The position numbers and the translations under genes are program-made. The notes below the pieces were generated by a model. It ran no database searches. It saw nothing but the letters and a program-made list of their open reading frames with translations, and was not told where the DNA came from. A DNA stretch of 53,814 nucleotides, counting the filler, from Porpidia crustulata (Eukaryota): NCBI GenBank assembly GCA_964255105.1. It is 3 parts of 3 records of this genome, joined end to end, with 100 filler letters (N's around TTAATTAATTAA, not from the genome) between each part and the next. Parts side by side here need not be neighbours in the genome. Positions count along the whole stretch, not along the records: positions 1 to 17,890 come from CAXUWE010000201.1; 2 more parts are not named here. The stretch is one strand, 5' to 3'. The stretch's first letter is position 1, and each line of letters starts with the position of its first letter. Positions 1 to 35,955 of this stretch are shown piece after piece.

Positions 1-63
1 GAAGGGTTGGGGGTGGTGGCAGGGCGGAGAGCTTCAATAATAATTAAGACACTTGATGTTTTA

Positions 64-88
64 CTGCCGCTGCTGCTGCTGCTGCTGC
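64..88. repeat. (CTG)n microsatellite
   Basis: ctgccgctgctgctgctgctgctgc read directly. Confidence 0.8.
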
Positions 89-733
89 ACCAAACGAACT
101 GATATATTATGTGCCTTAGCCGATGTATTCAAGAAATTCGAAATCTGGTGGTCGATAGAGGGGTTAAGTGATCGTTACAGTACTCCTTGCTATTGGCGGA
201 AGGGTGTCTAGGGATGTTTTTTTGTGCAATGGGGGGATTTGGGGTATTTTTGTTAGGTTTTTTTTGTTGAAGTGCGGGGTCGCGAGGTTTGTGTTGGTGG
301 GCGGGGCTTGGGGGAGCAGTGAGGTGGGTTGCGGCACTGCTGCCTACCTAATCTGGCTGGGTTAGATGGCTCGGGTTGTTACTCTTGGGATACAAAATGT
401 GGATTGTTTCCTACATGGAATAAGACAACTTTATGCAATAGTAGATTTTACACTTCAACATTTATGTATAGGAAAGTCTGGTGGCTGCGAAGATGCGATT
501 GGTTACTTTTAGTAAACAAGGCAGCTTGTTCTCGTAAGGAAAATGGTACATGGATGTGATTGATGAATTTATCATCAGAGATTCCGTCTAAGGTAGCTCA
601 TGAAAAGTGGAGTGGACGGTTGCCAAACGGGGGGCATCATCCCATGTGTAGAACCCAACAAACTTGAAACTCTGGCCAGGGCGGCCGCAGAACCCTCAAT
701 GCACTTTTTCCTTCTCGATAGGACCAATGTCCT

Positions 734-2357
734 TCACGCCGGCTTGGGACCGAACAGCTTGAAGCCTCCAGGCACACCGGTTTGGAAAAGTCCAGTGGGA
801 TCGTAGCGCTTACTGACCTTGCGGAGATTTGCCACGCTGTCCCGGCCGTAGGACGCAAGCGGGGTTTGGAAGTTTGCGGCATAATTGAGATACTTGAATT
901 CCTGGAAAAGGCCGGCGGCTTTTGTGGCCTGCTCGACACGGCCAATCAGAGTCTCTGCGACGCGGTTGATAAGATCGTCGTCTTCGGCTTGGTTCCACGT
1001 GATGGAGAGCAGGCACAACACTAATGGACCCTGGGACCCGTTGAGTCCAAGCGAGTTGCCGGGAACCACTGCAGGCATCCGTTGAAAAATTACAAAATGT
1101 TGGATCCCGGCCACGGTTTTGATGGAATCGACGGATGCATTCCATATGCTGTAAACTTCTTGGAGTATCGATTCGCTTGGGCCGAACACGGTGTTCACAT
1201 AAATGCCACTTGGGCCATAGTCAGTTTCCCACGCATGATGCAACGTTCGACTTGATTGGATTATTTACCGAGAGTTGACGGCTTGTTGTGACTCTTCTTC
1301 GGTCACAAAATCAACGATATTGGAGATCCTCATCGTATTGCCCAGTTGTGGCTGGATCGATGTAAAGGGTTGGAAGATCGGCGGATTCGCCACAGGTTTT
1401 GTGTAGTAGATGCCGTCCGATACAAGAAAGCCTCCTGTTGCACCTAGGTAACCAATCGCACAAACCATTTCCGCGTACGGGTCAAAGTTCATCGGGGTCA
1501 TTAACTTTTGAAAGGCTAGTAATTGTTGATGGACTGTGCTGCTAGGATAGGCGATGAACCCCCCCCAAAAGTCACTGCGTGGATATGTCTGAAGATCAAA
1601 TCGTGTCACTATTCCAAAGTTGTTAGACCCCCCTTTGAGGGCCATAAAGAGATCCGCATTCTCGTGAGCATTTGCGTTGACTATCTGACCGCCTGCCAGA
1701 ACGACCTCCATATTTGCCACGTTGTCGCAAGCAAAACCCTTTTCCGGCGAGAAGAATGAGATTCCACCTTGTTGATTACTTAGTTGTGCGCTATGATGTA
1801 ATCACAAGGGGCATAAACTTACCGCCAGTGATCAAGCCCCCAACACCAAGTCCTGCAACCCGAGCTCCCAAAACCGTAAGGTTCAATGGGAGAATCTTTG
1901 TGTAGACATCTTTCCAGATCGACCCAGCGCCAACGGTGGTGATCGATTGGTCAGGACTGACATTGATAGCGTTCATAGACCTCAAATCAATGGTGACGCC
2001 GCCATTGATGTTTGCCGCACCAGCGAATGGTGTGTGGCCTCCGCTTCGGATGGCAAAGGACGACGAATTGGGGTTTGTTTTCCGGCTTTCAACCATGGTG
2101 TTGATAATAAGTGAGACATCTGAAGCGCTCGTCGGACGGACTATGCAATGTGGCGAAAGACGGGCTTCTTGAAAAAAATACGAGCGTGTAGACGCCGAGT
2201 ATAGGGTATCATTCGGATACGACACTTTGTTGTGGAGAAAAGACGATAAAACGGAGCATGGAGCAGAGCCATTGTCCACAGCTGCGATCGTTGGGGAGAT
2301 TGTCACCAAAAATGCGGTAAAGAGTAGCAGGGCGTTGAAGTGGTAGGTGGACAGCAT
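734..2357 (-). CDS. Secreted FAD-linked oxidoreductase (berberine-bridge-enzyme/VAO-like), 3 exons
   Basis: N-terminal signal-like peptide (MLSTYHFNALLLFTAFLVTISPTIAA); FAIRSGGH flavinylation His motif; LKGGSNNFGIVTRF; C-terminal YLNYA...YDPTGLF..GGFKL; ORFs 1791-2357, 1265-1720 and 734-1243 joined by two GT-AG introns. Confidence 0.92.
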
Positions 2358-3301
2358 GGTAGAGATTGCTTAAGAATACTCGTAGATAGACCAATACTTA
2401 TGTGCTTCTTCGAGGCGAGCACACATGGCGGCAAAGGCGTCGTCTATGATCTAGTATATTAGAAACAGACATTAGAAGGGTTCCAATCAATTCGATCGCG
2501 TTATGCCCATCCGCCATGACTGCAACAGCTGGTAGCGGATAGAAGCTTTCGATGGATTGATAAGGGATATTGATGATCTGCATGATAGAGGCCCACGCAT
2601 GTGTCAGCGCAAGTGTCATCGCTGAACTCGGACGGATTTCGCTGGGTGGGATGGTGTAGAGGTGTGTACTTCGTAAGGGAGTCCACGGCCTATTGGATGG
2701 AGGCCCGTGTGGCGCATACAACACAAGCGAGCAATTCCCGTGTCTCCCACGTGTCTCCCAAGCGAATCAAGGGACTAAGGTACGGTAAATAAACTGCGGC
2801 AAAGCTCTGCGACAGTGTACCTGAGTAAAGTAGCGTCTTCGTTATATATCCCTATACTACGTAGGGTCTCGCAACTCCCACTGATATAGGTCGAGATGTT
2901 CAACAGATAAAATAAAGAAAAAGAAGAAAAAGAATCTTGGCGATTCAAAGAACCATATCAAATTAGTTTACCAATGCTGCTGGAATATTCCCGCATATCC
3001 AAGCTCATTTGCTTATATTTCACTTCCGGTAGAGAACTCACTTAGACTTAGGAGCTGATACCAGGGAAATCCAACAACCGATAAGTAATGATTCGGAAGT
3101 ACTCTTGGTGATGATCACATCAAGGAGGGCAAGAGAATAAAGTATAAACCGGATAAATTGAAAATCTGATTGGTCGAAAATCGGAACTGCTACTCTGACT
3201 AGTCTGGACGCCCATTGACCGTAGCTTCGTTCAAGGAATGGACTCGGAGTCGCAGCTGCTTAAACATTGCTCTCAATGTCCAGGAACAAAATAACTTCCT
3301 A

Positions 3302-4221
3302 TCAGGTCTGTATTTTTGCACGCGTGACCCACCATGCGATTACGAGAACGGCCATAGGCAAGAGAACCTTGAGAGAGGATAGAAGTGCATTCTGGATCCC
3401 TCTTCGCACAATCAGGCTTATCTTTTCGCCCAGCGCGGCCGATTCGTTGATACGGGGAAATTCAACGTTGGGGATCGGCTTGTTGAGAAATTTGCACAGT
3501 GGCTCCCAGCGGTCTTCCAGGTTGAATTTGAGTAGTTGCGATGAAGGCGTCACTCTCTCAATCAGTGCGTAATGTTCTCGGTATTTCCCTCTCGCTTTCT
3601 CCTGCATTTCTCCTTGCGAATGGGCCTCCATCCAACCCTCTGTCCAACGACGGGATGTTCCACCCAGTTTCCCAACAAAGCGAGTATCAAGTTGTGCAAT
3701 TAGCCGGATGATTGGGCTCCACACGTTCGCAATGACACCGTCGTTGAAGCTTTGATACCATTTTTCAAGGTCCCGCTCAACCAAGACAACCTTGACATCG
3801 GGATAACAGTGGAGCAGATCTTCTGCGAACGCAATGGCAGGTAGATCGGCGATCGCACTGTAATTACCAAGAAGCTGATCCCAGTCGGTCCGCATGAACA
3901 ATTTCCCTTTCCCAAAATATTTTGCATCAAGGGCTTCGTTCCACATCTCGGTGTCACGGACGTTGGCGATCAGAGTAAGACCATGGTAGCATGGAAAGCC
4001 CAGGATATTCAGTGCGAGCTGCATTGCTGAGGATGTGACCATCAACTTGAAGGCTCAAACCAAAATTTCGGAAGGGACATCATACATGCCGTTCCCGTAC
4101 GCGGCATGCCTAGGCTAAGAACTCTCATAGGGACCACGCGGCTGCGTTTTCGGGGATCCACGTCCATGGTGGTGGTAAAGAGCTCCGGATGTTTCTCTTG
4201 CATTGTGGGAAGCCTCGACAT
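3302..4221 (-). CDS. Sulfotransferase-like P-loop protein (Sulfotransfer_4-type) with C-terminal transmembrane anchor, 2 exons
   Basis: Spliced motif VLSLGMPRTGTA|SMQLALNILGFPCYHG; DLPAIAFAEDL; WEPLCKFLNKPIPNVEFPRIN; hydrophobic tail LKVLLPMAVLVIAWWV; start could also be the Met at 4203. Confidence 0.85.
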
Positions 4222-4976
4222 GATGTCAGAGGTCAGAATTTTATAGATCTGGATTTGGGAGATTTGTAGTGCGTAGGAGATGTGCTTGAACAGAGGACCA
4301 TTATCAGCATCCAATCTCAGTTTCGCCAGGGTAAGGCTTGCTTTACGGCAGTCCGCAGGAAAAGGAAACGGCGTGTACGCTATGCTTGAACATAGGATTT
4401 GGGGATTGACGGCGATATGTGACCTGATGAAATTCACTGCGTGGGAATTGACGGCTGATTCGAAGTCAGGTCGGTTGCAGGTAGGAAGAGTAGCAATTTC
4501 TCGCGTTGCGATGGGCTTTGAAGACAATGATGAATAGCGGGGACAAGAGTTCTTCTACTAGGGCTCCCGATTCATGAGTAAAAAACCCCGACATGCATTA
4601 CCTCAACACCCAAAGTATCAATAAACATTATGGAGTCTAGATTGCTAGATAGCTTTGATGATCTTTCAGATACTTAATGCCTCTCTTGGGTCTACGTCGC
4701 GATTTATTTCATACACCCTGACGGATGTTAGGTAGGTTCGTTAAGTTTCCTCGTACCGTCCCAATCGGTGAGGCTGCTTTGTAGACTATCCACTCGGATA
4801 ACAGGAAAACAGGATTGCAGGAATTTCAAAAACTCAGCGGTACAAGAAGAGGAAGTACGACAGGAATGAAGACTACAGAAGATGATTCTCTTTCAGTCTA
4901 GGTAGGTGCTAATACAAACTTCTACAAATCAACCGTCCGACCTATATCTCAAAGCCTATGGGGAACCGCTTGTTGA

Positions 4977-7083
4977 TCAGCTAGAGCTCTCTTTGTGCTC
5001 TGACCGTTTCCGGATCGAGATCTTAGATGACTCGTAGGGCATCTGAAATGTCTCCCAGAACCATTTATACGAGGTAGGTTCGTCTTCCAAGCGGAACTCA
5101 TAATTGGCTATAAGGTGAATGAGAGCCATCTTGATTACGAGGGCAGAGTGCCATCTACCAGGGCTACAGAGCCCAAGTCAGCATTGGCCTTTCAGGGCAC
5201 GTTGCATTTGCCTACCAGACTTTAGACCCAAGTCCCCAGATTGGAAAATCTTTGGAAGCATCGGTGAATGTTGTCCCTCGTAGTATATTGTCTGACGAGC
5301 CCGAAGCGGTACTATGTATGGTTTTGACAAAACGAAGGCCGTCGAATGTTTCGGCATTGGGATATTTTGACTCATCGTGCATGATGTCCCAGCCTGACAC
5401 ACACGCTATTTCACCGACCGACACATGAGGCCCACCGTTCGAGAAAGTGAAAGGTTTGAGCGCTTTGCGGCGGATTGACACTGTCGAAGCCATTAGCAGA
5501 TTCAGTGCTAGAAGCATTAGATGTGATTAGGATTCCACTCGCTTTTGTCCAGAGGGTTGACTCTCACTGCCTCTTTAATGAAGCTGTCAAGTATTGGCAG
5601 GCGATTGATGCTTTCGTAATTCATGCTTCCGATATTCTGGATTTCATTGTGTATCATCTCAGCATACTCTGGGCGAGCACACAGCTCCAAGAACACAAAA
5701 TGAAGATTCTTCTGAAAGTCAGTAATGAATGGGCCCTACCTGGAATAATGGGGCCTTACTATCCATGGTTGATGAGAAGCAGCGAACCATATCCCAATGA
5801 TGGCCTGGATAACGCTACTATGGGTCCAGTAGCTCGAGTCTGCTGAGGCTTTGATCATATTGTCGAACAATGTCATCTTTCAGATACCGTGTTAGGGTTT
5901 TAAAGATCGTAACTGAGGTAGATGTCAAGAATACCGATTTCAATACAGCATCTTCCTTCCAGCCATCATGATTTGAGTCTGCTGCGCGATGAAGACGTTC
6001 AAAGAGGACGTTCAGAGCATGACCTTTCTTCGTAATTATTGAGTGTACAAAGCTACCCAGATTTAGCAGGAAATCAAATGAATTGTCTATTAGGAGAAAG
6101 ACTCGCGATTGCGCAAACACAGGGACAATCTGTAGAGCTCCCATACACGCTACTGTGTCATCGTAGTAGCGAGACATTGCTGAACAGAAAACCGGTTCTT
6201 TGCCTGACTACTCGTCAGGTTCCAGGATTGGGGTATTTTGTTAAGCGAAAGCTTCATACATAGCTTTTCTCCGAAGAAGTACACTCCCAACATCCCGGTG
6301 GCCAAATCTCGCATTAAGGGGGCTATTCTAATGGAGTTCCAATCTAAAGAATCGGTTAATATACATTCAGTAGCTCGTGGGAATGCACAAAACCATCAGT
6401 AGTGATCTGAGAATCAATCCTTTTCTGAAACGTCTTTGTTAGTCTTGCGTGCAGGTACGGCTGAAGAGCATTTATTTGTGATAGACCATTAATGCGGATG
6501 GCCCGAGCAAAAAGGCGATAGCGCAGGTTTATCTGCTCGTTGGGATCCAATTGAATTTCAGCATGGCTCATGGTGTGCTTAAAGCCAAAAATCTGCTTAT
6601 AATGAGCCTGAAATACTCATACTGAGCATTATAACGAACATCTGCATACACAGCTCGCTGAGAGAGCTCTGACGCCTCGCTGAGCTCCTCCATAGCATCT
6701 GGCGATCGAATAATTACAGGCTCTTGCCGTCCGAAGGGTCGATAGTATATGCCAGATCGCTTGTCATTGTCAGCCAGATATGGGATGATGCTCTAGATCG
6801 AAAACCCTTACAAAATCTCGGATTATCTTCATGAGGCGTGTTGAAGAAGAGGACAAAGATTGAATCCATCTAGACACAAGCGGCGAAGAGCGGATGGCAA
6901 ATTGAGGGACCTTGAATACAATTAGCGAACATTTATCTCCTTATGCAGCACCTAGGTACCATTCATATATACCGGAAGACACAGATAGACCTCACCGGCT
7001 AAGCCATATAGGAGGACTATTGCAAACAGGGTTTTCAGGACTTTCTCTACCGCTGGGCCTGGCTCTGTGATGCTGTCCATCAT
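4977..7083 (-). CDS. Cytochrome P450 monooxygenase, multi-exon (ent-kaurene-oxidase/PaxP-like group, tentative)
   Basis: N-terminal anchor LKTLFAIVLLYGLAG; ExxR in LDSFIKEAVRVNP; YPNAETFDGLRF; haem motif WGLGSKV-C-PGRWHS with the Cys codon split TG|C by an intron; stop TGA at 4979-4977. Confidence 0.9.
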
Positions 7084-7998
7084 GGGACAAAAGTAGAAGG
7101 CCAGATTAAGCGAGTGCTTGAGAATTCGCGAGGAGTTGGGTGATATTTTCACAACTGCACGACTTCAGCTTGTGGGAAGATAATTTGGAAAGTGAAGAAG
7201 AGAGAGCTACCACCATCGCACTTGTTCTTGTCCGCCTCCTTGGCACATACTGCTGATGAGACTCAGAGCTTGCAGACATTTTTATCCAGGCTCCAGGGTC
7301 ACGAGGCGACATTAACTGGAACAGACCGCTCATTGCCTCAATGCCGCGCACTTAGTCCCATTCGCAGGGGCGAGTGGAGTTCATCGCCGACACTTGACCA
7401 GGTTTATCGAGAAAGCATTCAGTGAGACCGAAAGCTTAAGCGTAGCACATACGATTGACCGACCACGTCTTGCACCTAGTTGACCATGAGAGTCGCAGGA
7501 TACGGACACGGTGTGGTGGGCAATGGCTTAGTGGACTGCAATCTTGTGGTGTAAAGCCTTACTCGCGTCATGCATCTATGTCCGGAGTATTACTGGCTCA
7601 ACTCCTAGGCAACCACTGCCTGGTTTTCTGGATGACTCAATCACAATGCATACATACAAGCAAGGCATCGCATAACGGTTGGCTAAAGATTGAGAAAGGC
7701 AAACACGCCACCTACAAACATATGGGGCTGCTTTCCAGCGAGGTCTTGAGGTACGATAAAACGGGATGCATCTAATTTCGTCTGTTAAACCTCTTTTGAT
7801 AAGGCGCCGCTTCAGCTTATCGGCTGGCGCAATCACAGTGCAGGATGGAGCCTCATTGTCCTGAAGGGTAATCCCGGCTCGACCGGGTCTCCTATGATGG
7901 TGTGAGGCATTTGTTGTGTATCCCTGATAGTGTGAATGTCAAGATGTTCGTTGGATGAAGGTTTGCGGGCTTTTAATTAACCCCGGCATTAACACCCG

Positions 7999-8031
7999 CT
8001 TTTAGATCCTTTTAGATCCTTTTAGATCCTT
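7999..8031. repeat. 10-bp tandem repeat (TTTAGATCCT)x3
   Basis: tttagatcct tttagatcct tttagatcct read directly. Confidence 0.9.
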
Positions 8032-8104
8032 CGGGCGCTCAGCCTTGCCTTGAATGTATGGTATGTGGGTCTAAGGCACTTACCTACCTCACCACCTTAC
8101 CTAC

Positions 8105-8192
8105 TCAGGCTAGTTCTTAACGTCCGGACATAAAAGCGAGAATTACCGCCTAAAATCAACGTTTTGTGTCCGGACATTAAACACCAGCCTGA
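8105..8192. repeat. 88-bp inverted repeat with 31-bp arms (MITE-like/hairpin)
   Basis: Left arm 8105-8135 tcaggctagttcttaacgtccggacataaaa vs reverse complement of 8162-8192 tcaggctggtgtttaatgtccggacacaaaa: 26/31 identical. Confidence 0.85.
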
Positions 8193-8503
8193 AAGCTAAA
8201 ACAAGTGGCATGTAAGAGCACCCGACCCCCCCGGATTCTGGTGCTACTATGCACTGCAACAGGCCGGTAGGAGGCTGAAGTGACATTATGAAGGCCACGA
8301 AGACAGCCTTGCTGTAGGCTCTAGTCAGTACGGGGGTAGTATATGCGTCTCATCATCGCTGCACAGCTGCCTATGGTGCCTATGGTCACCATCTTCTGTC
8401 TTCTGTTCGCTATCCGATAGCTGCGCCCAGCCTTCAGAAACCACCTGCCCGTCCACAGGCCAATCTCCGCTGTACCGCAACACCCTCCATCATCACCTCC
8501 ATC

Positions 8504-9450
8504 ATGACCCTCAAATCCGTCCTCATCACCGGCTGCAGCGCCGGGGGCATCGGATCCGCGCTCGCCGAATCCTTCCAGAAGCGCAACATGCGCGTCTTCG
8601 CGACCGCGCGCGACCCGTCGAAGATGTCCCATCTCGCCGGTCTCCCGAACGTGACGCTGCTCACGCTCGATCCGACTTCTCCCGCCAGCGTACGGGCTGG
8701 TGCGGAAAGCGTGGGCGCGCAGACCGGCGGCACACTGGACTACCTGGTGAACAATGCGGGCCAGACGATCATCATGCCGACGTTGGATTTCGACGTCGAG
8801 GTCGCGAAGAGCATGTACGATATCAACGTGTGGGGGATGATTCGCGTCACTCAGGAATTCGCCTCGCTCGTCATAGCCGCCAAGGGCACTATCGTTAGCA
8901 TTAGCTCTATCGCTACAAGCGTCAACACGCCTTGGATGGGTGAGGGTTTACGAAGCTGCAACGAGGGCGATAGATTCGCTAACGAAGGTGCAAGGTATCT
9001 ACGCCGGCTCAAAGGCAGCGATGACCGCCATCACCGACACTCTCCGCCTGGAGCTGGCCCCCTTTGGCGTCAAGGTCGTGACGGTTCACACCGGAGCCGT
9101 CAGTACGAACACCCTCTCGCGCGGCACCGATTTCAAACTCCCAACGACGTCAAGATACACGGGAATTGCAAAAGAGATCGCCGGTCGGGCTCGAGGCGAG
9201 GATGGGACTCCACGGATGACGCCTTCGGTCTATGCGGAGAAGGTCGTGGGTGATGTTCTCGGAGGAGCCAGCTGGCAAGTCTGGAGAGGCGGGTACGCTT
9301 CGATCGTGCGCTTCACGTCGTCGTGGTTTCCGGCGTCGGTTTCGGTCAGTCAACCGTAACGTTCGCTATGCCGGAGTATTCGGTCACTGACAATGTGATT
9401 AGGACTCGATGTCGACGCGAGGCACTGGATTGGACGTCATGAAGGTCTAG
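8504..9450 (+). CDS. Short-chain dehydrogenase/reductase (Ayr1/17beta-HSD-like classical SDR), 3 exons
   Basis: VLITGCSAGGIGSALA (TGxxxGIG), LVNNAG, catalytic YAGSK, LRLELAPFGVKVV; introns ~8940-8994 and ~9345-9402; last exon DSMSTRGTGLDVMKV*. Confidence 0.93.
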
Positions 9451-9720
9451 AGAGCTTTTAGAACTTGGCAGTCTCTTCATAGGCGGGTCTACAATCAACA
9501 TTTCAACTTGTACTCTCGCTGTTCATAATTGTCAGAAAGTGGCATCTGAAACATGAGACTCGTACGATCAACATAATAACAGAAGGCTAAGTTCAAAAAT
9601 AAGCATGGAAACCAACATCTCATCTTGTCATATGATACAAAGATTACTCCAACAACGCAGCAGAAAGCATTGTATCCAACGCAGACCATTTGCACAGGCC
9701 CACGTCCACACCCGTGCCCT

Positions 9721-11307
9721 CTATTTCGGATCCCAACCCTTTCGCGGTTGTTGTCCTCGAGCTTCGTCGGTCGTACTTTTCTGTTCAACCTGATACTGCA
9801 AATGAATCCCATCTTCTTCCACCTCCGACGGGTTTCCCGTGTGGATGTAGGTTCGCATGGACCGGACCGGCGCCATTTCGTAGCCGCGATCCCTAAAAGC
9901 CGGGTTGGAGACTTCCAAGTCTCTGTACTCGGCCCTTTTTCGCTTGCTGTACGACGGTTCCGAACCGGAAGACTTGCCACGATGAGAGGGCCAGCTCGTT
10001 GAGAAACGTGAAGTCAATGTTGAGCGCAACCGCTTCCAGCTGGGCAGATGATGGAGGAGGCTTGACATCGACGGCTGCAAATTCCCGTCAACGCAAAACT
10101 CGGGACGGGGCGAATCGTCTGGAACATACCATGCAGCTAGCCGTCACTCCGACGCACATTTCAACAAGACTGCTACCACGTCAGCTTCAGGAAGGAAGCA
10201 CAGAGACTCCGAAATTACCCACGACGCGAGGATGACCGGCATTGTCTCATAAGTTATGTCGGTGTAATCATGGGTAAGCACCCACTTGAAATAAATACTG
10301 AGTGATGATGCGATGCATGCTCTGATACGCTGTCAGTCACGCTCGGATGATAACCAAAACGGGAAACGAAAGGTCACTTACATCACGCCGGTAAAGAATA
10401 CCGCAATTACCCCAAGCTTTCGCCTGATTGGTAGCTGGAGCTTGCTTACCCCTGCAATGGGTAATACTAAAATGTAAACATCCAGGACAAGGCTGATGGC
10501 GGCGATTGGTATGGTCAACGGCACTGTCCGGGCCTGCCGCGGACTCTGCACAGTTTGCTGCAACGTTTCTCCGGGGGTTGGGACCGTGAATGCGAATGTA
10601 GCAATTAGGATCGAGGCATAGAAGAGAACGGTGAAAGTTGCACCGGCATAAGAGCTATACCTGAGCCACTTCATGGGACGAAAAAGCTGAATGTAAAGCA
10701 AGAAGAAGCTAAGTTTGGCGAATGTCCAGACTATCACCGTGACCCAGTTGGCGAAGAATCCCGTCTGGAGAGGGTGTGAGATAGAGTAGCCTGGATCGAG
10801 ACTCTAACTTCAACGCACCATGAGAAAGTTATTACTTGCAAGATCGCCTAGGGTCAGGTCCCACATGTGCGTTCCAAAATGTCCAATGGTAACAGCTGCT
10901 TGCAGATTAGATCTGAGAGACGCTAAAAAGCTCCCTCAGAGTACGTACCCAAGACCGCAATAACGAAGTAGAGCACAGTGCCAACCTGGAAAACGTCAAT
11001 TTTCATTGATGGTGGTGCTTTGGACAGGGCTTACTGTGGCAATCACGCAGGTGTCTGTGTGGATTAGTATCAGGTTAAATGGGTTGAAATCAAACTTACA
11101 GTCGTCCGGACTCGACTTCCTTACAATCCTGAATTTGGTGTAGATCCTCACGGACACAAAGAGCAACATGATAGCTAGCAGTATTGAACCCACAATGATC
11201 AGCACTTGACCATCACCATGAGGGTTCTCAAGGTTCGGGAGCACGCCTGCCGGAGGCTTGGCGGCTGGTACGCCTGCCAGCTTCGCTGGGTCGCTGGCGT
11301 CTGCCAT
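9721..11307 (-). CDS. PTH11-like (fungal rhodopsin-domain) integral membrane protein without CFEM, multi-exon
   Basis: PAAKPPAGVLPNLENP N-terminus; VRIYTK..DD; GHFGTHMWD; FAKLSFFLLYIQLF; LDVYILVLPI..V.KLQLP.R.KLGV..VFFTG; CVGVTASCM. Confidence 0.88.
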
Positions 11308-12019
11308 TATGGACAGAAGAGCGGTTCCGTGTTCGCACCAACGAGGCCGAAGAGAGGTGAGATATTTGAGAAGTGGAATACAACAACGTGTGGAGCACGA
11401 ATGATCTAGAAGGAATACATGGAACTTAACAAAGCTTGGAGAAGCCGTGAATGGAGTGGCATTGAATTCCAAAAAGCTGTATGCAAGTAATTTGGGTTCC
11501 GAAACACTAAAGGATGATATGCACTCCGCCAACTTACTCAGCTGCATCAGTGTAGCATGAGTGTGCCAAAGCAATGAGCCAATGGCAAGAGCGCATACTA
11601 CAAGGTTCTTACCACACCGACTGATTGGGCTCGGAAGATAGGAATAATACGACATCCCCGGGAAATATTGCCTGCATGCTACCTTGCGCTCCACCAATGA
11701 GATATCTAGGACTTGCATACCTTAGGATCCTTTCAAAATAACTGTCAACGGCGCGTGCAGCATGTGGAAAGTTCCACGAAGCATGCCATTTACCAGGTGC
11801 AGACACACCATTGGTGAGTCGCCTTGCTCACACCATCAGTTCTGCCTCGTTTTCGGCATTTAAAGCAGCTATTATGGGGAACCATACAGTCGGTGTCGGC
11901 ACCCGAATCGGAGAAATGCCCGCTATATCAAATATTGGATATAGCAGCCGTGTATCAGAACCTGCGTGGGTTGGATTTGTTTCCTGCGCTACAGACATTA
12001 TACCAAGATGTTGACTTTC

Positions 12020-13913
12020 ATGGATTCACTGTCTTCACAGGATTTTCTGGTCTCCCGTTTCTCACAGCAGCCTGCGTTATTCACTGCTGTATCAGCACCA
12101 GTGTTTCTGCTGATATGGAGACTGTGGAGGTTCACCATTACTCCAATCCTCTATCCAATGAGCCCCAAAGAGCTTCCATACTGGATCCCATGTAAGCTTC
12201 ATCGCCAATCTACAAGCTTCAGCCTGGTCTGCTGACAAGATCATTTGTAGATCTAGGTATGCGTTCTCTTGAGCTTCTAGTTCGCATTACGCTCGCTTTA
12301 CTCACAGGACGCACATCTTAAAGGGCACACTATCCCTTTCTTTCTGAATTCTTATAAAATCTTGGAGAAGGGGCGGTAAGACCGACTATGATATTTTGTT
12401 AGCGCCGAGATGAGAAATTGACATATCTATAGCAAATATTTTCGGAACTCCAAAGAGCCATATTCAATCACTGTGGCCGGGCAAGTGATCTACATTATCA
12501 CATCTCCCGAAGATGTACAGGAACTCTACAAGCACACCACCACTATTTCGTGGTTACGTTTTGTCCAGGACCTGTATCGATGGATTGGCATTTCGCAGCC
12601 AAATATTGATAAACTTTGGCGAGCTCCAACAGAAGACCAGAAAGCCAAAGATCCTACGCGAAAGTTTCCCCCGAACCAGATGGTCGAGGAGTATCAATTT
12701 CACCAACTGCTTCCGGGTGAGAACCTGGACAAGATTGCGAAAACCTTTGTCCGATACGTCGACGAAAAGGTGCGCTGGCAGCAGCTCCAAAAGAAGTGTC
12801 CCTATATTCAAGGATCTTCTCCCAATTCCGTTAAGATATCGCTGATGGACTGGACCGCGGATGTCTTCCTCCACACCACTACGGAGATATACTGGGGAAA
12901 AACCATATGGGAAGTTGCTCCCAAGTTAATCGAATCCTTCTTGAAGTGGGAAGAGACGACTTGGAAATACGTATTCCAGCTTCCACGCTTCCTGAGCAGA
13001 GATATGTACGCGGCAAAAGACCAGCTTGTCGACGCGTTTACGGCCTACTTTGAACAACCGAAGAGCAAGAGGGGAGATGCCACCTATTTCGTCGTGACGG
13101 CGGAGGAAGAACTAAGAGAAATTGGATTCAAAGATCATGATGTTGCGAAAGTGAACATGCTGCAACACTGGGCGTAAGTAAAGTTCGGAGGATCGATTGA
13201 TCCCCCCACAACTCCTTGTCTTCATCCAATTGTTTTCACCACCTGGAATCCCCGATAGCTCATGTGATTTTAGCGTCAACGGAAATATCCACAAAGTGAC
13301 TTTCTGGATCTTCGCCTATCTCGCTCACAACCCCAAATTGCTTGAAACCATTCGAGCGGAAACCATGCGTGGTGTGGTCGACGATATTCCCGATGTCCCG
13401 TACCTGATTGGGGAATGCCCCCGATTGGAGGCGGTATTCCTTGAGGTCCTGCGCTTGAAAACGTCGAGTTCCTTGATGCGCTATGTTACAGAAGCAACCA
13501 TGATCGGAGGCAAAATGCTTCGAAAAGGCCACAACGTCATGGTACCCTACCGTCAGCTGCACTTTAGCGAGGACGTTTGGGGAGACAATGTTGCCCAATT
13601 CGATCCGGAACGCTTCTTGACACAGCAACACTTGTCGCGGAGCTCAAGTTTTCGGCCGTTCGGCGGAGGCCAGCACCTGTGCCCCGGCCGTTTTCTCGCA
13701 AGGCGCGCCGTCTTTACGTTTGTGGCTCTTGCCCTCTCAAGATTTGACATTAGCCTCGACACGGCAACGATTGAGGAGCGGCGAGATTGCAAAGTCGGTG
13801 GATGCATGCCGTCCTTTCCCAGAGCGGACGAATCAAAGCCGGGACTTGGGACACTGGCACCAATTGCCGGGGATGGAGTGATTTTGCGACTCCAACCTCG
13901 TGACCACACGTAG
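12020..13913 (+). CDS. Cytochrome P450, CYP7/CYP8-like clan; exons 12020-12191, 12251-12256, 12324-12375, 12433-~13174, ~13274-13913
   Basis: PKELPYWIPYLGH after splicing; I-helix HWA-VNGN; LEVLRL (ExxR); FDPERF; FRPFGGGQHLCPGRFLA haem motif. Confidence 0.93.
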
Positions 13914-14265
13914 CCCAAGCTTACCTATAAATCAAAGTCGACATTCTCTCAGCTGTGTCGAAGTCGGATCCTACAGTGTAGCAAAACCAGCTCTTGGACT
14001 GCGGACGCTGATCGGCAAGCTCGAGTTGGACCGGAACGGAAAGTGTGATAGATTTTACTTTCTTTACTGTTCTGGGATTGGGAAAATCTCCGCATCGCTT
14101 GCTTTCGTGATGGTGTACTCGTCAGAATCTATCTTGGGCATTCGCTCAGTCATATTAGATCAAGCTTCAATTATGAATCATTATATTTGGAGCCGGACCT
14201 TGTAGTCTCGAGCACATCAACCTTACTGCTAGCGCCATTCTCCGACGTGCTGTGTGTGGATCATG

Positions 14266-16051
14266 TCAAACATCATGCCCAGTCTTAGTTTTCTTTTCTT
14301 TCAGGCCAAACTCAGTCTCTAACTCGGTCCTCAGTTCGATTTCCTTCTCGAAAAACACAAGGAAAAAGCCCAAGCCAGAAATGCCGACAGCAGCCTGCCA
14401 CACAAGTTTCAAACTGTCGGAGTAAACACCGATGACTTGATTTTGTAGAGCTGGTCGATCTCGAAGAGAGTTCACAAAGTTGCCAGTCGCATGTTCGTAT
14501 GCCTGACCTCCGGAGAGCAGCATTCTTACTGCAGGATCACTTATCCGCATAGAAAGGCGTGCAAATCGATTGTTGAAAATAACCGCAGAGATTGTGATTC
14601 CCCATATTGTTCCAAAGCTGCGTGATACTGCCCAAATCCCTGTTGCTGTAGCCGAGTCGGCCTCGGAAAGCTCTGCTTGGGCTGCAGCTAGTAAGGTCCC
14701 AATAGAAAGGCCCGTGCCGGCAGCAAAGATAATCTGAAATACGATCCACATAGCCGTTGAAGAACGATTGTCGAGCAGAGTGAAGGTCCCAAAGCCGATC
14801 GTCATGAGGGCAAAACCAGCGTGATGAAAAGGGCGATATCTGCCGAATTTCTGCATTGCACCACCACCAATTGCGCCAAAGACCATGAGCATAATGACGG
14901 TTGGCAGCATCTGGACTCCTGATCGAGCTGGTGTCGAGCCCAGGACTGCTTGAAAATATATTGGCATGAAATATATCTCCCAGTACATGAGAAGAGTGTG
15001 AATGAATGTAAGAGCGAATGCTGTTGCGGAAGTCCTGTTTGCAAAAAGCTGTGGCGGCAGAGTGGGTTCGACGCACAGCTTTGAGACTTCGAATATGTAG
15101 AAAAGCCCTAATCCGACAAAGCCTGCTACCAGGGGAAAGATTATGCGCCAGGATGACCAGGAATATCTTGTTCCCCCATTTGTGAGCGCAATCAAGATGG
15201 ACGTGGTGGCAGAAATAAAGATGGCGTTGCCCGTATGGTCGACTCTTCTGAACTTTCCCATAAACGTCGACTGCTTTTCGTACCTGACGTGTAGGAAGGC
15301 CAACAGAAGGATCATTGCGACAGCCCCAATGGGAAGATTGAGATAGAAAACCCAGCGCCAAGTGGTAGTCTCCACAATAATGCCACCAAGGAAAGGTCCT
15401 AGACCAGTTCCTATGGTGACTGCACCAAAAATGATGCCCATGACACTGCCACGCTTTCTGAGTGGCACCAGGTCACAGACAATGAGATCAACAAGCATGG
15501 TGACGCCACCTCCACCGATACCTTGAATTGTACGCCCCGCAATGAGCATGGTCATACTACTCGCACCCCCGCTGATCCCACTACCAAGCATAAAGAATGA
15601 TATTGCGAATAATATAAGAGAACGCCGGCCAAAGATGTTGGCGGTCTGACCGTATAACGGCTGCAAGGCAGTACTTAGTTCAGTCATTGCTGTCAGCTTG
15701 CGAAACAAGGACTTTCATAGCGAAAAAGGATAAGGATCGGGACATGTACCTGGTTAAGAAGTATGAGTTTACTACCCACACGTACAATTCCCCGCCATGG
15801 AGATCTTGGATAATGCTAGGCAAGGCGGTCGATACAACAGTACCTTCCATCGCCGGTAATAGAGCTGTGACAGAGAGCGCTGTGATGACTGCCCAATACC
15901 GCCACCCATAATTAAGTTCCGTCTTGCCATTAGTGACTTCTCCCTCGACATGGACACTTTTTGGCCCTTTGGCTTTGGTAGGTTCGGAAATAGAGCAATC
16001 TTCGAATTTCAAGTTTTTATTTGCGTCTGGACCACAAAATGCAGCTGCCAT
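14266..16051 (-). CDS. MFS drug/metabolite exporter (DHA2-type, about 14 TM), 2 exons
   Basis: MEGTVVSTALPSI; YGQTANIFGRR (motif A); GRTIQGIGGGG; GPFLGGIIVETTTWRWVFYLNLP. Confidence 0.93.
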
Positions 16052-16932
16052 GCGAAGGTTCGACGCAAGACCTCGTGGATCTTTTGCTGGATGACATTCT
16101 TAGGCAGAGGTAGCGGGGTGTACCAGAAGATATAGGAAGTAAAAGCCGTGGAAGACCTGCAGTATCAGGTACCGATGTAGCTCAAGTCTTCCTTGCATAC
16201 TAAGCGAGCTAGCCTAGGAAATTATTCCCCGGCTGGGATCTTAACTCTTCTTTACGAAGGTAGGGGCTGGAAAAACGCCAACGGGTATTATGTTCGTTTT
16301 TCTGACTTGGTTTTACCCTACCTTAGACTACTTTAATCTTTATGCAATTACTCGTATCTGTGAGTTGTAGCTACTCCGCAGGGATCCTGCTGATCTGTGA
16401 TACTGTGCCACCCAATTGGCCATACGTCCCATGAAACATGCAAGAGCATCCTACACCTCAACCATTTCGGAAGTACCATGAACCACACGAATCAATCAGC
16501 GCTCTTTCGAGTGGATTGTAGAGAGATTTCCAAGAGTGGCTAGAGCTGATTAGGAATAAGGTAATGAAACGCTGATCATCACATTTTTTATTTCCTGCAA
16601 GCTGTGTAGTTGCCTGGTTGCACTTTGAGGTATGATTCGAGAGCGAGCGAGATGCCTCAGCAGACGATCTTGGTTAGCGTTCCGGAGTTGAGAGGGTGTG
16701 TCGTGGGTGAGCGAACGAGAATACAATAGGACGAATGCATTATCCCAATTATCCCCGCCGATAGTATAGCGATCTCACTGCCGAGTTCAATACCCAATTT
16801 AGGTTTGGAGGCGGAAGGGCTTACCGAACTGCGTCCGCCTACAAGTTGCTCCTTTTTCTATCGCCAGTATTTTATCTTGAATGACTTGTAACTTTCATTT
16901 TGTTCACCAACACAGACTTGCGTCCGCAAGCA

Positions 16933-17381
16933 ATGGAGTCATATATATTTTCATTTAACCGCCTCCTTCCACTGTGGATTCTTTTGGTACCTAAGCTCCA
17001 ATCTTCCAGCCCTCTTGCTTGCAGTACTAATTTTCGAATGCGGTCTAGACGTCTCTGATGGCGATCGGGCAAACCTTCGCCGCCTACACGAATTCCGGTC
17101 GAGCAGGGAATGCCACTGGCGAAGCAGCGCTCTCTGTACGCAGATTCGGCACATGGACCTTCTTGGCTGGCATCATCCGTCTATACGCAGCCTACAAGAT
17201 CGACTGCAGCGAGCTTTACCTTCTCGCAATGTGGACATATGGTATTGTTGTTACCCATTATACTGTGGAGTGGGTGGTCTTTGGGATACATGATTCAGGG
17301 AGAAAAGGGGCTCTGCTCGTATCTATATGCTCTTTGTGCTGGATGATTGCGCAGTCAAACTCTTTCGGCAATGCTAGTTAG
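16933..17381 (+). CDS. ERG28-like: Erg28-like ER membrane protein (diverged), 128 aa; exons 16933-16986 and 17049-17381
   Basis: Spliced protein MESYIFSFNRLLPLWILL|TSLMAIGQTFAAY...RRFGTWTFLAGIIRLYAAYKID..LYLLAMWTYGIVVTHYTVEWVVFG matches the Erg28 pattern LPxWLL..S..N..Q.Y...RTFGTWT....IRLY.AY......LY....T...A..HF..E..VF; intron GTACCT...TACTAAT...CTAG. Confidence 0.85.
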
Positions 17382-17890
17382 ATAGAAACTTTCGCAAAAA
17401 GGCGATTCCGTCTTCTGAGAATCAGGTGACCGAATTGTCGAGTCATTGGGAGTAACGCGACCCAGTCCATAAAATTCGGCTGAATTTAGTTGGTATTCGT
17501 AAAGAATTTCCTCGACCTTCAGAACGAGACTGGTGGCATGTACAGCGCTATGGAAATAAAATCGTAAAGTCGCCATAATATAGATGGTGTCGCATCAACG
17601 GCGAGAAGATAATGATAACCCTTGGGCAACAGCCTAACTCGAGTTCAGAGCTGTCTTTAGCGTAGCCTTACGGGCCCTTCTAAAGTTCAGGCACGCTAGG
17701 TTCTTAGCTTCAGACCCAAGCAAGGGATCCCAGCCTAGATCTAACCTGGATCTAACCTAGCATGGCACAGAGTAAATATCTACCTTACACTGTATCCGGG
17801 CGAAATGTTGTTAGGCCACTACACTAAGCTCCCTACTAGCGCCTAATGGTGAGTGCCAGAATATTCGACCTTCCTTCCTACCTTCCTCCC

Positions 17891-17990
17891 NNNNNNNNNN
17901 NNNNNNNNNNNNNNNNNNNNNNNNNNNNNNNNNNTTAATTAATTAANNNNNNNNNNNNNNNNNNNNNNNNNNNNNNNNNNNNNNNNNNNN
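17891..17990. other. Assembly gap linker (44N-TTAATTAATTAA-44N)
   Basis: Exact 100-nt symmetric spacer with stop codons in all six frames; same structure at 35856-35955. Confidence 0.97.
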
Positions 17991-19699
17991 CTAGCGGTGG
18001 TGGACGGGCCCGGAAGTGCGGTCTTGGACGTGGAGCCCGAGACGGGGCCCAGGCCGGGGATGGCGAGGGGGAAGCAGCTGGAGAAGAGGGGCAGGTTGAG
18101 GAGGGAGATGAGTCTTTTGGTGAACGTTGGTTGTTTGCTGCTGCCGAGGGTGGCGTCGACGTTCAGATCAACCTCGATCGCGAGCGTGGACGTGAGCTGG
18201 ACGCCTGTGGTGGATGAACCCGGGGTTTTGGTGCAGAGGCCCTTGGGGTCGTACGCGGCGGTCAGGGCGGCCGAGACCGAGGGGAGCTTGAGCACCATGG
18301 CGACGTCGAAGGTGCCGACGCCCGTGAGCTCGATGCCGAAGGCGAGTTTGGGCTGGGCGAAGGCGGCGGCGGTGACGGAGGCCGAGAGGGCGGTGACGTC
18401 GAAGTTGGGAGTGATCTTGCCGCCGTCGAAGCCCGTGGCGGACGAGGCGCCGGGGTTTTGGATGTCGGCGGTGATTTGCGCGGTGTCGGGGACCGAGGCG
18501 CTAAGGCCGTAGGCGAAGGCGGCGGTGCCTTTGACCGAGGCGGAGACGCCGACTTCGTAGCTGATGGTGGTGCCGAGGTGGAAGATTCCCGTGATGGCGA
18601 TGCCGGCGCCCGGGACGCCGGCGGCGAAGAGTTCTTTGGTGTAGGAAAGGGCTTTGAGGGCCTCGACAGCGGAGACGGTGGTGGTGAGCTGGAGGTCGGC
18701 GGTGAAGCCTTTGGGCTGGCCTTGCAGGGTCAGGGATTTCAGGGAGAAGAAGGATACGGAGACGTGGCCGGTGAGGGTGAAGGAGCCGGTGGTGAAGCAG
18801 TTGACGCAGTCGATGGAGACGCGTTGTTTGATGTCCGGGTCGGTGAAGATGTTGGTGACTTTGCCCGGGGTTCCAACATTAAGGCCGAAGGTGATGGATT
18901 TGCTGAGATCGAGGTTGCCCGTCAAGGCGCCCCCTATGCCCGAACCAATGCTGGAGATGCCGTTGCCAATGTCGCCAAGCAAGTCACGTTTGGCTGTGGG
19001 GCGTTGGTAGGGAATGACCTTGCCAAAATCCATCTCGTACGTGCCTGCTACTTTGTCCCATGAGGCTGTCTTGGATGTCAAGTGTGTTGTAAGAGTTTTC
19101 GAATCCTCGACTAGGTCCGTGATGCTGCATCGATGTCAGTATAGATACTGGAAATATAAATGGTGATTCTTACTAGTACGGTTGTCTTTCGTCGGCAGGA
19201 CTGCAGCCCTCGTGATTGGCAATCAATAAAAATTTCTTCTCCGGTGCCGAGTTAATATAGTTCCACTGCTTCACCGCATAGCTAAAGGCAGCTTCGGACT
19301 TGAAGGTCAAAGACATGGCTCCATCGGCGCCGCCGCAGTCGACGGATTTGGTCAGGCCTTCGAAACGTTCCATCATGATCATCTGTAGGCCATCCGGAGC
19401 ATATAGTGTCATGTTGGCGAATAATAGCTGGCCATGTTCTACTGAATGTCAGTTCAATATCTTTTGGGGAGGATTTTCCGGAAGTACTTACCACCGGGAG
19501 ATCCGTACACCAATTGTGATTGGCTTTCTAGATCCAGATGAGAGAAATCCTCTGTTGATCGACGGTGCAAGCCTTGGGCATGTTCAAACGCAAAAATGTT
19601 AATGGGTGTGAGAACCTGAGGACCTGGTTCGGCGTTTGCAGAGACAAAGACCGGGAGCGCAGATAGCACTGCTCCCAATGCCAACGAGTGTACACGCAT
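17991..19699 (-). CDS. Secreted/cell-surface protein (DUF7029/DUF7223-like), 3' end lost in the gap
   Basis: Signal peptide MRVHSLALGAVLSALPVFVSA; MMERFEGLTKSVDC; LIANHEGC; IDCVNCFTTGSF; beta-rich Thr/Ser/Gly C-terminal region; two introns; family call from memory of motifs. Confidence 0.72.
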
Positions 19700-20506
19700 G
19701 ATGCCGGTAATGCCAAGTCTAAGCTCTTAGTGTCTTGATCAACAAGGATATTAACAAAAAAGAGAGACTAAACCAAGAAAGAAGCAGAAAAATTAAAGAC
19801 TGTGATCCTACCAACATCGAATGATGCCACTGGGGAGCGGAAAGATACTATATAAATTGCTCGAGACCAGAGCGACGAACAACGAGATGGTAAAAGACTG
19901 ATGCAAGGATTTCAGCCCCAATTGTGATGAGCATGAGCTGCAGGGACACATGACAAGTGGTGTGCTAGCATAGCTTCAGATAATTAATATAATAGCTAGA
20001 GCACGGGGAGTATCAGCCAAGACAATCGTAGAACGGCCCTCCCTGTACGCGTTGCATTAGCAAGGCGAAAACCACTAGATGATGACGGAGATCTATCAAG
20101 TAGCTAGCTGGTCATGCTACTCCCTAAGTCGTGATAGTAGACGTAGTGTACTCGTTTGACGAGCGAGGTGGAGGGCGGGAGGGGCCGACATGCGCATCAA
20201 GATACTCGTACCATCGGAGTCCCTACAAGGAAGCTCCCAATGTTGAAGTCATTACCACACAGCCTACCACTGACTCCAGAGGATCCACTAACAGCAACCC
20301 CAAGTAACATTTTGAGGTCCACTTGAGACCGAGAGCAGTGCTGAGGGAGATTAGAAGGATAAGCAGAACGGAAGTCTTCCCGCAACGTCAACTTCAGCCC
20401 ATGTCATCGTCAACGCTACAGGTGGCATGGGCGTGGCTTTGATTGGTGCTTGGCGACAAGGCGAGGATTGTGACCCCGACGGACTCTGGGGGCGGAAAGG
20501 TTGAGT

Positions 20507-20566
20507 GGAAGGTATGGTGGGATGATGGAAGGTGGTTGAAGGTGATTGAAGGTGGGATGAAGTTGG
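20507..20566. repeat. Degenerate ~9-bp tandem repeat (TGAAGGTGG-like)
   Basis: tggaaggtatgg...tggaaggtgg ttgaaggtga ttgaaggtgg gatgaagttgg. Confidence 0.55.
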
Positions 20567-24664: not shown

Positions 24665-25000
24665 TGTTTGTCAATGCATTAGGATGGTAGAAGGAAAAAA
24701 TGGCAAAGCCACTGTTTGGACAGTCTAGCCTTCGAGGATCAAGAAATCAACAAATCTGACATCACCGTACATTGTGGCGTAGAAAGCGAACTGGGACTAG
24801 CGTACTGTGCCACTGGCTCCCCCTCGTCCAGCCACGATAACCGAATGTCCTTCGGAGAATTGACAGATGAGATTTCGAACAGCAGTATTGATCAGATTTC
24901 CGAAAGGCAATTGAGAGGCTTCTAAGTATGAGTATACAGTACGAGATAGACTGAATTAGACCACCATAGTACCTTAGCCCACTCCTCCAAGTGTTTTAGC

Positions 25001-26501: not shown

Positions 26502-26780
26502 GAATTTTCCGTGCAGCTCCAAAGAGACCACGGATGATGGCCACAAATATAGTATTACATATCGGCTTGTGACCAGGACATGAGAATAAAACAGGATCGT
26601 AAGGATGGCTTCAAAACCTAGTCCTCATACCAACACCGCGCTATAGTATAATATACAAGAAATATTCAATGTACCTCACTATATCATACAATACCATATC
26701 CAAAATAAAAGTATGCCCTTTTCTGCGGTGGCACATATCCCCTTGAGGCATCAATCTTGCTTTGTGTAATAGCTTTACTT

Positions 26781-28011: not shown

Positions 28012-28043
28012 ATCTGCTCAAGCATCTGCTCGAGCATCTGCTC
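28012..28043. repeat. 12-bp tandem repeat (ATCTGCTCRAGC)x2.7
   Basis: atctgctcaagc atctgctcgagc atctgctc in the divergent promoter between the orphan gene and NTE1. Confidence 0.8.
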
Positions 28044-35855: not shown

Positions 35856-35955
35856 NNNNNNNNNNNNNNNNNNNNNNNNNNNNNNNNNNNNNNNNNNNNT
35901 TAATTAATTAANNNNNNNNNNNNNNNNNNNNNNNNNNNNNNNNNNNNNNNNNNNN
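35856..35955. other. Assembly gap linker (44N-TTAATTAATTAA-44N)
   Basis: Same artificial spacer as 17891-17990. Confidence 0.97.

Follow-up and report, generated by a model that had tools for sequence, protein, structure and literature searches.

The window examined here, 53,814 bases from the assembly GCA_964255105.1 of Porpidia crustulata, consists of three separate contigs joined by synthetic spacers, and the first of these, contig 1, is filled by eight genes that a first-pass annotation had proposed to be a tailoring cluster for a sterol or other lipid. They encode, from left to right, a BBE-type FAD-linked oxidase, a sulfotransferase, a cytochrome P450 (P450a), a classical short-chain dehydrogenase/reductase (SDR), a seven-transmembrane (7-TM) protein of the Fung_rhodopsin family, a second cytochrome P450 (P450b), a major facilitator superfamily (MFS) transporter and a paralogue of Erg28. 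All eight families were verified by Pfam on exon-level open reading frames (ORFs) at the positions in Table 1, and they were the only families found at E <= 1e-3 when all 143 stop-to-stop ORFs of at least 55 amino acids (aa) in contig 1 were scanned. As judged from gene content and order, the block is best explained as a true cluster for specialised metabolism that lichen-forming ascomycetes have kept by vertical descent. No description of this gene combination was found in the literature searched, most subscription journals being outside that search.

Conservation of the gene order

When metagenomes were scanned with an alignment of 26 sulfotransferase sequences, 46 loci were obtained, eight of which (L001-L007 and L011) hold sulfotransferase orthologues at 74-78%. 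In all eight the SDR, P450a and sulfotransferase genes keep the order and relative orientation they have in the window; P450b and the 7-TM gene are additionally present in six, L003 and L011 ending at contig edges, and the end of the MFS gene is reached in four (L001, L005, L006 and L007), with its C-terminus at the locus edge and 63-74% identity. Against L001, exon 1 of the SDR gene is 76% identical and the 7-TM gene retains conserved blocks at 46-77%. Because the eight loci are 98-100% identical to one another they count as one independent lineage, and its DNA identity to the window is about 69% in the stretches that align. There is, then, a six-gene core (MFS, P450b, 7-TM, SDR, P450a and sulfotransferase) that is colinear in one other metagenome lineage, and since order and orientation are kept at that level of divergence the grouping is more than chance. 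The BBE gene, first counted among the cluster's members, lies outside this core: it was absent from L001 when the stretch following the sulfotransferase was scanned with Pfam.

Named genomes and deeper relatives extend the picture. In Pyrenodesmia sp. 2 the orthologues of the sulfotransferase and of P450b are tagged Q9184_001479 and Q9184_001483, for each the longest contig is given as 66,545 bp, and the four-tag spacing fits the presence of P450a, SDR and 7-TM genes in between, as in the window. Locus L014 keeps the pair of P450a and sulfotransferase (57%), and in L016 a sulfotransferase (53%) is followed by a relative of the BBE oxidase (37-53%). A Botrytis hyacinthi gene model (P0152, BHYA_0281g00080) joins an SDR fragment (48.5% identity with the cluster SDR) to a P450 resembling P450b; annotation has probably merged two neighbouring genes here, and the model hints at an SDR-P450b association reaching the Leotiomycetes. 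Co-occurrence of the cluster genes in other fungi, which the first-pass annotation had put forward as a check on its proposal, is seen for the six-gene core in the L001 lineage, and the Pyrenodesmia spacing fits it. A Ty3/gypsy-type retrotransposon (gag, zinc knuckle, integrase and chromodomain; L014:7804-13048) adjoins the P450a-sulfotransferase pair of L014.

That the genes are neighbours by chance or through relaxed synteny, with no joint function, is very improbable. It would sit well with the lack of a shared promoter motif described below and with the dispensability of the BBE gene in one lineage, but it has to account for the six-gene colinearity and orientation at about 69% DNA identity, for a Pyrenodesmia tag spacing that fits, for gene pairs that recur in deeper relatives and for the arrangement of six of the genes as three divergent pairs.

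Integrity of the genes

The spliced models of seven of the genes have uninterrupted reading frames. In P450a an intron with GC-AG borders (5542-5481, GCGAGT...CAG) lies at a site where the donor in L001 and L014 is GTAAGC, and a second intron (5215-5164) splits the codon of the haem-binding Cys, the motif reading WGLGSKV|CPGR across it. All 12 of the splice combinations tried stay open to one stop, three junctions being uncertain, and nine exon blocks are conserved against L001, L011 and L014. One junction without a GT donor had raised the possibility of a P450a pseudogene; this was ruled out by the GC-AG intron at the site of the relatives' GTAAGC. P450b includes a micro-exon of 6 nt (ATCTAG, 12251-12256) between introns of 59 and 67 nt, and with it the protein aligns gap-free to the Lachnellula arida orthologue through WIPYLGH (635 versus 625 bits).

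The introns of the 7-TM gene are compatible at every junction and its stop is at 9723-9721; the last intron is uncertain and the model is one predicted from its junctions. No CFEM domain was matched in any contig 1 ORF, and the protein, labelled PTH11-like at first, is not classed as a PTH11-type receptor and is, by its domain content, PTH11-like in a loose sense only. The MFS gene matches both MFS_1 and TRI12, the trichothecene efflux pump family, above cut-off, which predicts an exporter class; it and the Erg28-like gene are transcribed in divergent directions. The oxidase, with its FAD_binding_4 domain and a C-terminal BBE domain that is borderline on exon 3 alone (19.5 bits against a cut-off of 20.6), is counted as a predicted BBE-like oxidase and has an N-terminal hydrophobic stretch resembling a signal peptide. 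Its matches in PDB include an FAD-binding oxidoreductase (9p1o, E 3e-9), whose RSGGH aligns with its own RSGGH, presumably the place of covalent FAD attachment, and 6-hydroxy-D-nicotine oxidase (8.5e-8).

No coding block conserved against L001 is present between P450a and SDR (7084-8503), and a hidden gene between the annotated ones was ruled out, there being no L001-conserved block outside the eight genes and no Pfam match.

Table 1. Features of the window and of two metagenome loci (positions are those of the window unless a locus is named)
Feature	Position	Strand	Remarks
Contig 1	1-17890
BBE/VAO-type FAD-linked oxidase, 502 aa, 3 exons	734-2357 (2357-1823, 1767-1269, 1208-734)	-	FAD_binding_4, 46.3 bits (cut-off 26.4)
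Sulfotransfer_4 sulfotransferase, 286 aa, 2 exons	3302-4221 (4221-4086, 4026-3302)	-	PF17784, 199 bits
Cytochrome P450 'a', ~523-540 aa, 10 exons	4977-7083	-	p450 Pfam fragments
Upstream region shared by divergent pair P450a/SDR	7084-8503	.	from gene orientations
Classical SDR, 266 aa, 2 exons	8504-8939, 8995-9359	+	adh_short, 82.5 bits
Fung_rhodopsin integral membrane (7-TM) protein, ~5 exons	9721-11307	-	PF20684, 65.4 bits
Upstream region shared by divergent pair 7-TM/P450b	11308-12007	.	from gene orientations
Cytochrome P450 'b', 540 aa, 5 exons	12008-13913	+	p450, 110 bits
MFS transporter, 569 aa, 2 exons	14266-16051 (16051-15750, 15673-14266)	-	MFS_1, 115.6 bits; TRI12, 47.4 bits
Upstream region shared by divergent pair MFS/Erg28-like	16052-16932	.	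from gene orientations
Erg28-family paralogue, 128 aa, 2 exons	16933-16986, 17049-17381	+	PF03694, 70.4 bits (cut-off 22.2); profile positions 9-95 of 111, exon 2
Artificial joint of contig 1 and an unrelated contig	17891-17990	.	N44-TTAATTAATTAA-N44; no in-locus sequencing gap
Contig 2	17993-35855		extent as listed
DUF7223 protein (contig 2)	17993-19135	-
Lysophospholipid-type acyltransferase (contig 2)	22437-24146	-
ISN1 inosine monophosphate 5'-nucleotidase (contig 2)	24950-26029	+
NTE-type patatin lipase, cyclic-nucleotide (cNMP)-binding, 1365 aa (contig 2)	28943-33037	+
Second synthetic spacer	35856-35955		same spacer as at 17891-17990
Contig 3	35956-53814
WD40 protein (contig 3)	41812-42828	+
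Methyltransferase (contig 3)	47718-48443	+
Zn2Cys6 factor (contig 3)	49629-51038	+
Sulfotransfer_4 paralogue of the L019 pair	L019:10001-10654	+
Fung_rhodopsin gene of the L019 pair	L019:10841-11596	-
AMP-binding_C_3 fragment	L001:14540-15055	+	E 2.4e-5
Tautomerase_3 gene	L001:17625-17912	-

The sulfotransferase

A profile built from 26 orthologues of the Sulfotransfer_4 protein matches the solved structures 5tiz, 4mua, 9kf1 and 8y9p along about 214 positions, with E-values between 2.5e-37 and 1e-30 (2.5e-37 for 5tiz and 7.7e-31 for 4mua). Exon 1 encodes GMPRTGT, just before the part of the domain matched on exon 2, and we take it to be the 5'-phosphosulfate loop for the sulfate donor 3'-phosphoadenosine-5'-phosphosulfate (PAPS); the C-terminus is a hydrophobic tail. 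Sulfation, offered as a possibility in the first-pass annotation, is made plausible by the profile match to PAPS sulfotransferases of schistosomes, and sulfate transfer from PAPS to a hydroxyl group is a prediction for this enzyme.

A search with its exon gave 123 homologues, with orthologues 61-93% identical whose named sources are mostly lichen-forming fungi. The named homologues at 61-74% are mostly from Pyrenodesmia, Kuettlingeria, Flavoplaca, Calogaya, Polycauliona, Circinaria and Thelotrema, which we take to be lichen-forming genera, and there is one at 62% in Lachnellula, which is not a lichen. Paralogues at 41-55% have varied neighbourhoods (81 of 130 ORFs were scanned in one set and 59 of 166 in another, L032 and L035 being left out). 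Those in L009, L010, L012, L015, L017 and L018 are beside housekeeping genes, and in L019 a 49% Sulfotransfer_4 paralogue directly adjoins a Fung_rhodopsin gene, a pairing that is therefore not confined to the cluster. Also near the L019 paralogue are genes for a carboxylesterase, a cupin and a beta-lactamase-like protein.

Among solved structures the sulfotransferase is nearest to xenobiotic, drug-activating sulfotransferases from schistosomes, which raises the question of whether the block could serve to handle lipophilic foreign compounds, for instance phenolics from partners or competitors, with the P450s and SDR acting in phase I, the sulfotransferase in phase II conjugation and the MFS pump in phase III efflux. 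The composition fits such a three-phase scheme, for which no backbone enzyme would be needed and none was found on contig 1 or in the 10 kb of L001 described below; paralogues at 47-55% are in ordinary, non-biosynthetic neighbourhoods, and no pathway-specific transcription factor was among the families matched in the 143 ORFs of contig 1. A detoxification set would not be expected to include an Erg28 paralogue of its own or a BBE-type oxidase, however, and six genes whose order and orientation are strictly kept are more usual in a biosynthetic cluster, so that detoxification seems unlikely to be the function of the block.

The Erg28 paralogue and the sterol cues

The first-pass annotation had drawn its sterol argument from three genes, and they fare differently. 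For the Erg28-like gene the family match stands, but the protein is not the housekeeping ERG28. A word-indexed search gave five relatives at 61-71%, and an exhaustive one 197 representatives at E <= 1e-3. In an unrooted tree of 75 rows and 144 columns (the window protein, the five relatives and members of 80-260 aa among the first 75 listed representatives, with three long-branch and two multi-domain rows left out), a 57-row clade with 97 support in the approximate likelihood ratio test SH-aLRT includes the Aspergillus Erg28 (P0235) together with proteins of Gyalolechia fulgens (P0257) and Sarea resinae (P0268). Gyalolechia is, we presume, of the same family as several of the genera among the sulfotransferase matches. 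The window protein is outside this canonical clade, in a separate 12-row group with support of 85, and a FastTree run gave a similar split. By its place in these trees the Erg28-like gene is a cluster-associated paralogue, of a subfamily apart from canonical Erg28, and it is the one real sterol-related pointer in the cluster. Percent identity was dropped as a test of paralogy, canonical Erg28 proteins being only 35-47% identical to one another. Two long proteins left out of the tree, P0230 (1745 aa) and P0273 (1150 aa), contain 13 and 9 separate Erg28-like stretches, respectively.

Three further members of the 12-row group apparently share contigs with sulfotransferase orthologues, as matching sizes of the longest contig listed would have it: P0225 and P0016 (76%) both list 37,491 bp, P0228 and P0010 (80%) 10,730 bp, and P0233 and P0024 (71%) 1,374,590 bp.

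The other two cues are not specific. P450b had been called CYP7/8-like, a label that goes back only to the automatic names 'Prostacyclin synthase' and 'Cholesterol 7-alpha-monooxygenase' in two genomes. Members of one P450 family share, by convention, more than 40% identity, and P450b shows no particular closeness to CYP7 or CYP8: BM3, CYP17 and CYP8B1 all score at E 1e-17 to 1e-21. The L. arida orthologue P0130 (56% identical), for which the Atlas label is 'Cytochrome P450, Ascomycota' only, gives 3.4e-17 for CYP8B1 (7lyx), 7.3e-19 for BM3 and 2.7e-18 for CYP17; the C-terminal exon of P450b repeats the pattern, with the three at similar E-values, and its middle exon has no match in PDB at E < 0.1. 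Neither does an 89-aa exon of P450a match anything in PDB. Among 98 homologues of P450b the best is Q9184_001483 at 73%, followed by proteins of Flavoplaca, Lachnellula arida, Psora and Xylographa. Together with the sources of the sulfotransferase homologues, these make a lichen-forming ascomycete the most likely origin of the contig. The SDR, said to be 17beta-HSD-like, matches 17beta-HSD1 at E 1.8e-7, about 22nd of 75 matches, with nearer solved relatives in DHRS9 (6e-12), clavaldehyde dehydrogenase, borneol dehydrogenase and FabG-type reductases. Apart from the Erg28-like gene, the sterol argument from these protein comparisons is weak.

The first-pass annotation's own reading was of a self-contained cluster, lacking a core gene and drawing on the primary pool of sterols or other lipids of the endoplasmic reticulum, and in such a scheme the P450s and the SDR would be brought to the sterol C-4 demethylation machinery by the Erg28 paralogue, and an intermediate diverted from there would be oxidised, sulfated and exported. 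This is possible but rather doubtful. The distinctness of the Erg28-like subfamily from a canonical clade with such high support speaks for it, as do the contig sizes that P0225, P0228 and P0233 have in common with sulfotransferase orthologues, and the sulfotransferase tail and the hydrophobic stretches with which both P450 models start would suit a membrane substrate; no core domain is present on contig 1 or within 10 kb past the sulfotransferase of L001, and there is a precedent in the vid cluster, located through its CYP genes (PMC5943271). Yet P450b is no nearer to CYP8B1 than to BM3 or CYP17 and has the middle exon that matches nothing in PDB, 17beta-HSD1 ranks low for the SDR, Erg28-like domains occur also in predicted PKS clusters in the part of the literature cited (PMC6985275), and the ends of contig 1 leave space for a core gene. 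A fuller version, in which lichen fungi and some Leotiomycetes keep the core-less cluster, the Erg28 paralogue docks the two P450s and the SDR onto the C-4 demethylation complex, and a 4-methylsterol-type intermediate is diverted, sulfated by the tail-anchored sulfotransferase to an oxysterol product and secreted by the MFS pump, is improbable when taken as a whole.

The backbone question

The cluster's flanks on contig 1 are 733 bases on the left and 509 on the right. A Logan contig of what is probably the source run (17,557 bp, depth 11.9) stops at the right end of contig 1, where the last 100 or so bases (17786-17890) have a depth of 92-110 against 11.9 and so represent a high-copy repeat, at about 10x, and therefore the assembly breaks there. 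One A>G difference is at 17835, inside this repeat. The first-pass annotation had pointed to a gap at 17891 as a place where a core synthase might be found, but the spacer there is artificial and joins unrelated contigs, so the joint hides no such gene. Contigs 2 and 3 carry housekeeping genes unrelated to the cluster, with no sign of adjoining contig 1; no polyketide synthase (PKS), non-ribosomal peptide synthetase (NRPS) or terpene synthase is among the 38 ORFs scanned of their 46 of at least 110 aa, the other eight having been dropped because they overlap longer ones. Contig 3 holds an additional gap of 10 N at 37629-37638.

In L026, a distant fungal metagenome contig, a 41% Sulfotransfer_4 paralogue (10001-10723, +) is about 0.8 kb from a highly reducing PKS (1614-9191, -) with ketosynthase, acyltransferase, dehydratase, enoylreductase, ketoreductase and acyl carrier protein domains. 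L027, L029 and L033 look like copies of L026, with identical scores and match coordinates.

Most fungal clusters with tailoring sets of this kind have a core gene. Given these priors, the truncated contig, the PKS beside the L026 paralogue and the report that an Erg28-like Pfam domain is enriched in one clade of type III PKS and reducing PKS clusters, as far as the cited part of that work goes (PMC6985275), we tentatively favour, at somewhat less than an even chance, a skeleton supplied by a core synthase (PKS or terpene synthase) off the 17.9-kb contig, past the MFS/Erg28 end or at another place in the genome.

A number of points weigh against this off-contig source. None of the 143 ORFs of contig 1 has a PKS, NRPS, dimethylallyltryptophan synthase (DMATS)/prenyltransferase or terpene synthase domain, and in L001 no core synthase is present among 111 ORFs of at least 45 aa within 10 kb past the sulfotransferase, where the only matches are an AMP-binding_C_3 fragment and Tautomerase_3. 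The relatives' loci reach 10 kb upstream of the sulfotransferase match, and the stretch past the MFS/Erg28 end is beyond them. If P0228 and P0010 are on one 10,730-bp contig, the cluster may be a compact unit. Orthologues of the sulfotransferase and of P450b occur across many lichen families and in Lachnellula, a spread broader than expected for a lineage-specific pigment cluster. Lastly, a comparison of eight upstream regions, five from the window and three from L001, gave no shared promoter motif, with no 7-mer in at least six of the eight and no 8-mer in at least five, and these regions hold no recurrent CGG-N-CCG site. The AMP-binding_C_3 fragment of L001 is isolated, with no matching AMP-binding N-terminal part found. 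The original statement that there is no backbone enzyme thus stands for the 17.9-kb contig and for one side of one relative; with flanks of less than 1 kb on contig 1, it does not extend to the whole locus.

A candidate pathway

What we observe is which domains are there, that the genes are intact, that their order is conserved and that the Erg28 subfamily stands apart; the chemical steps and the scaffold role we infer. Together the proteins may work as a membrane-associated line in which a lipophilic small molecule is oxidised, reduced and O-sulfonated before export. P450a and P450b would hydroxylate or otherwise oxidise the substrate, the SDR would interconvert ketone and alcohol, and a tail-anchored enzyme of the SULT-OR type would move sulfate from PAPS onto a hydroxyl group, probably one put in by P450a, the conserved neighbour of the sulfotransferase. 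The BBE-type oxidase, secreted or lumenal, could add one further oxidation where it is present, and the MFS pump would export the product. The dedicated Erg28 paralogue may tether the membrane enzymes, as Erg28 does for the enzymes of sterol C-4 demethylation.

The block can be described as a set of fungal genes for tailoring and export, to which two unusual accessories belong. Because cluster finders take backbone enzymes as their starting point, a conserved block of this kind would be passed over. If a core synthase does adjoin it, the block becomes an ordinary tailoring set to which a SULT-OR-type sulfotransferase and an Erg28 paralogue have been added. If it is self-contained, it would be a second kind of sterol- or lipid-tailoring cluster beside the furanosteroid example and would point to sulfated lipids in lichen fungi, of which we know of no report; were the sterol-tapping version true, there would be a conserved secreted sterol derivative invisible to backbone-centred mining, and in the symbiosis the product would be a candidate for signalling or defence. 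The cluster-associated Erg28 subfamily suggests that a scaffold of primary metabolism was duplicated to organise the membrane enzymes of a specialised pathway.

Comparison with known systems

The furanosteroid-type precedent invoked at the outset holds: the vid cluster for demethoxyviridin in Nodulisporium sp. was traced via clustered CYP genes, and in the passages cited its authors note that lanosterol-derived steroids depart from the usual clustering with a terpene cyclase and have the pathway leave ergosterol synthesis once the first C-4 demethylation is done (PMC5943271). Like the present cluster it is rich in P450s and includes transporters, and it draws lanosterol from primary metabolism; it differs in its 19 genes, six P450s, Baeyer-Villiger monooxygenase, esterase and Bet v1-like proteins, the word 'sulfotransferase' is absent from the main text, and the likeness is one of logic, drawn without sequence comparison (PMC5943271). 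Enzymes related to known sterol-modifying ones, which mark clusters of the vid type, are not what P450b and the SDR proved to be, and for that reason, and because absence of a core gene has been established for contig 1 only, membership of that type is not claimed.

A parallel for the pairing of oxidation with sulfation is offered by mcfP and mcfS, presumably genes for a P450 and a sulfotransferase, respectively. In the part of the source cited they are named together as the genes for O-sulfonation in a secondary-metabolite route of the fungus Coleophoma empetri, that to FR901379 (PMC9987125). In the present cluster, too, P450a and the sulfotransferase are neighbours whose pairing is conserved, even in L014, and the likeness drawn is one of gene pairing. 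The FR901379 pathway differs in having an NRPS core and a peptide substrate.

Among predicted type III PKS clusters, those of 'clade 7' are enriched for an Erg28-like domain together with P450s; contig 1 lacks the type III PKS, the reducing PKS and the cyclopropane-synthase-like methyltransferase that those clusters contain, and the species named for them in the cited part of the report are not lichens (PMC6985275).

The Schistosoma SULT-OR enzymes (4mua, 5tiz and others) and SgdX2 (8y9p) have the PF17784 family in common with the cluster sulfotransferase, which differs from SULT-OR in its C-terminal hydrophobic tail and in its setting in a metabolic cluster.

Yeast Erg28 is the scaffold of the sterol C-4 demethylation complex. 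The window protein has the same Pfam domain and a similar size (128 aa, named Erg28 proteins having 141-151 aa); it differs in being outside the canonical clade and in being encoded in a cluster, next to an MFS pump, where its gene is in the company of genes for P450s and an SDR, enzymes of the kinds that Erg28 reportedly tethers.

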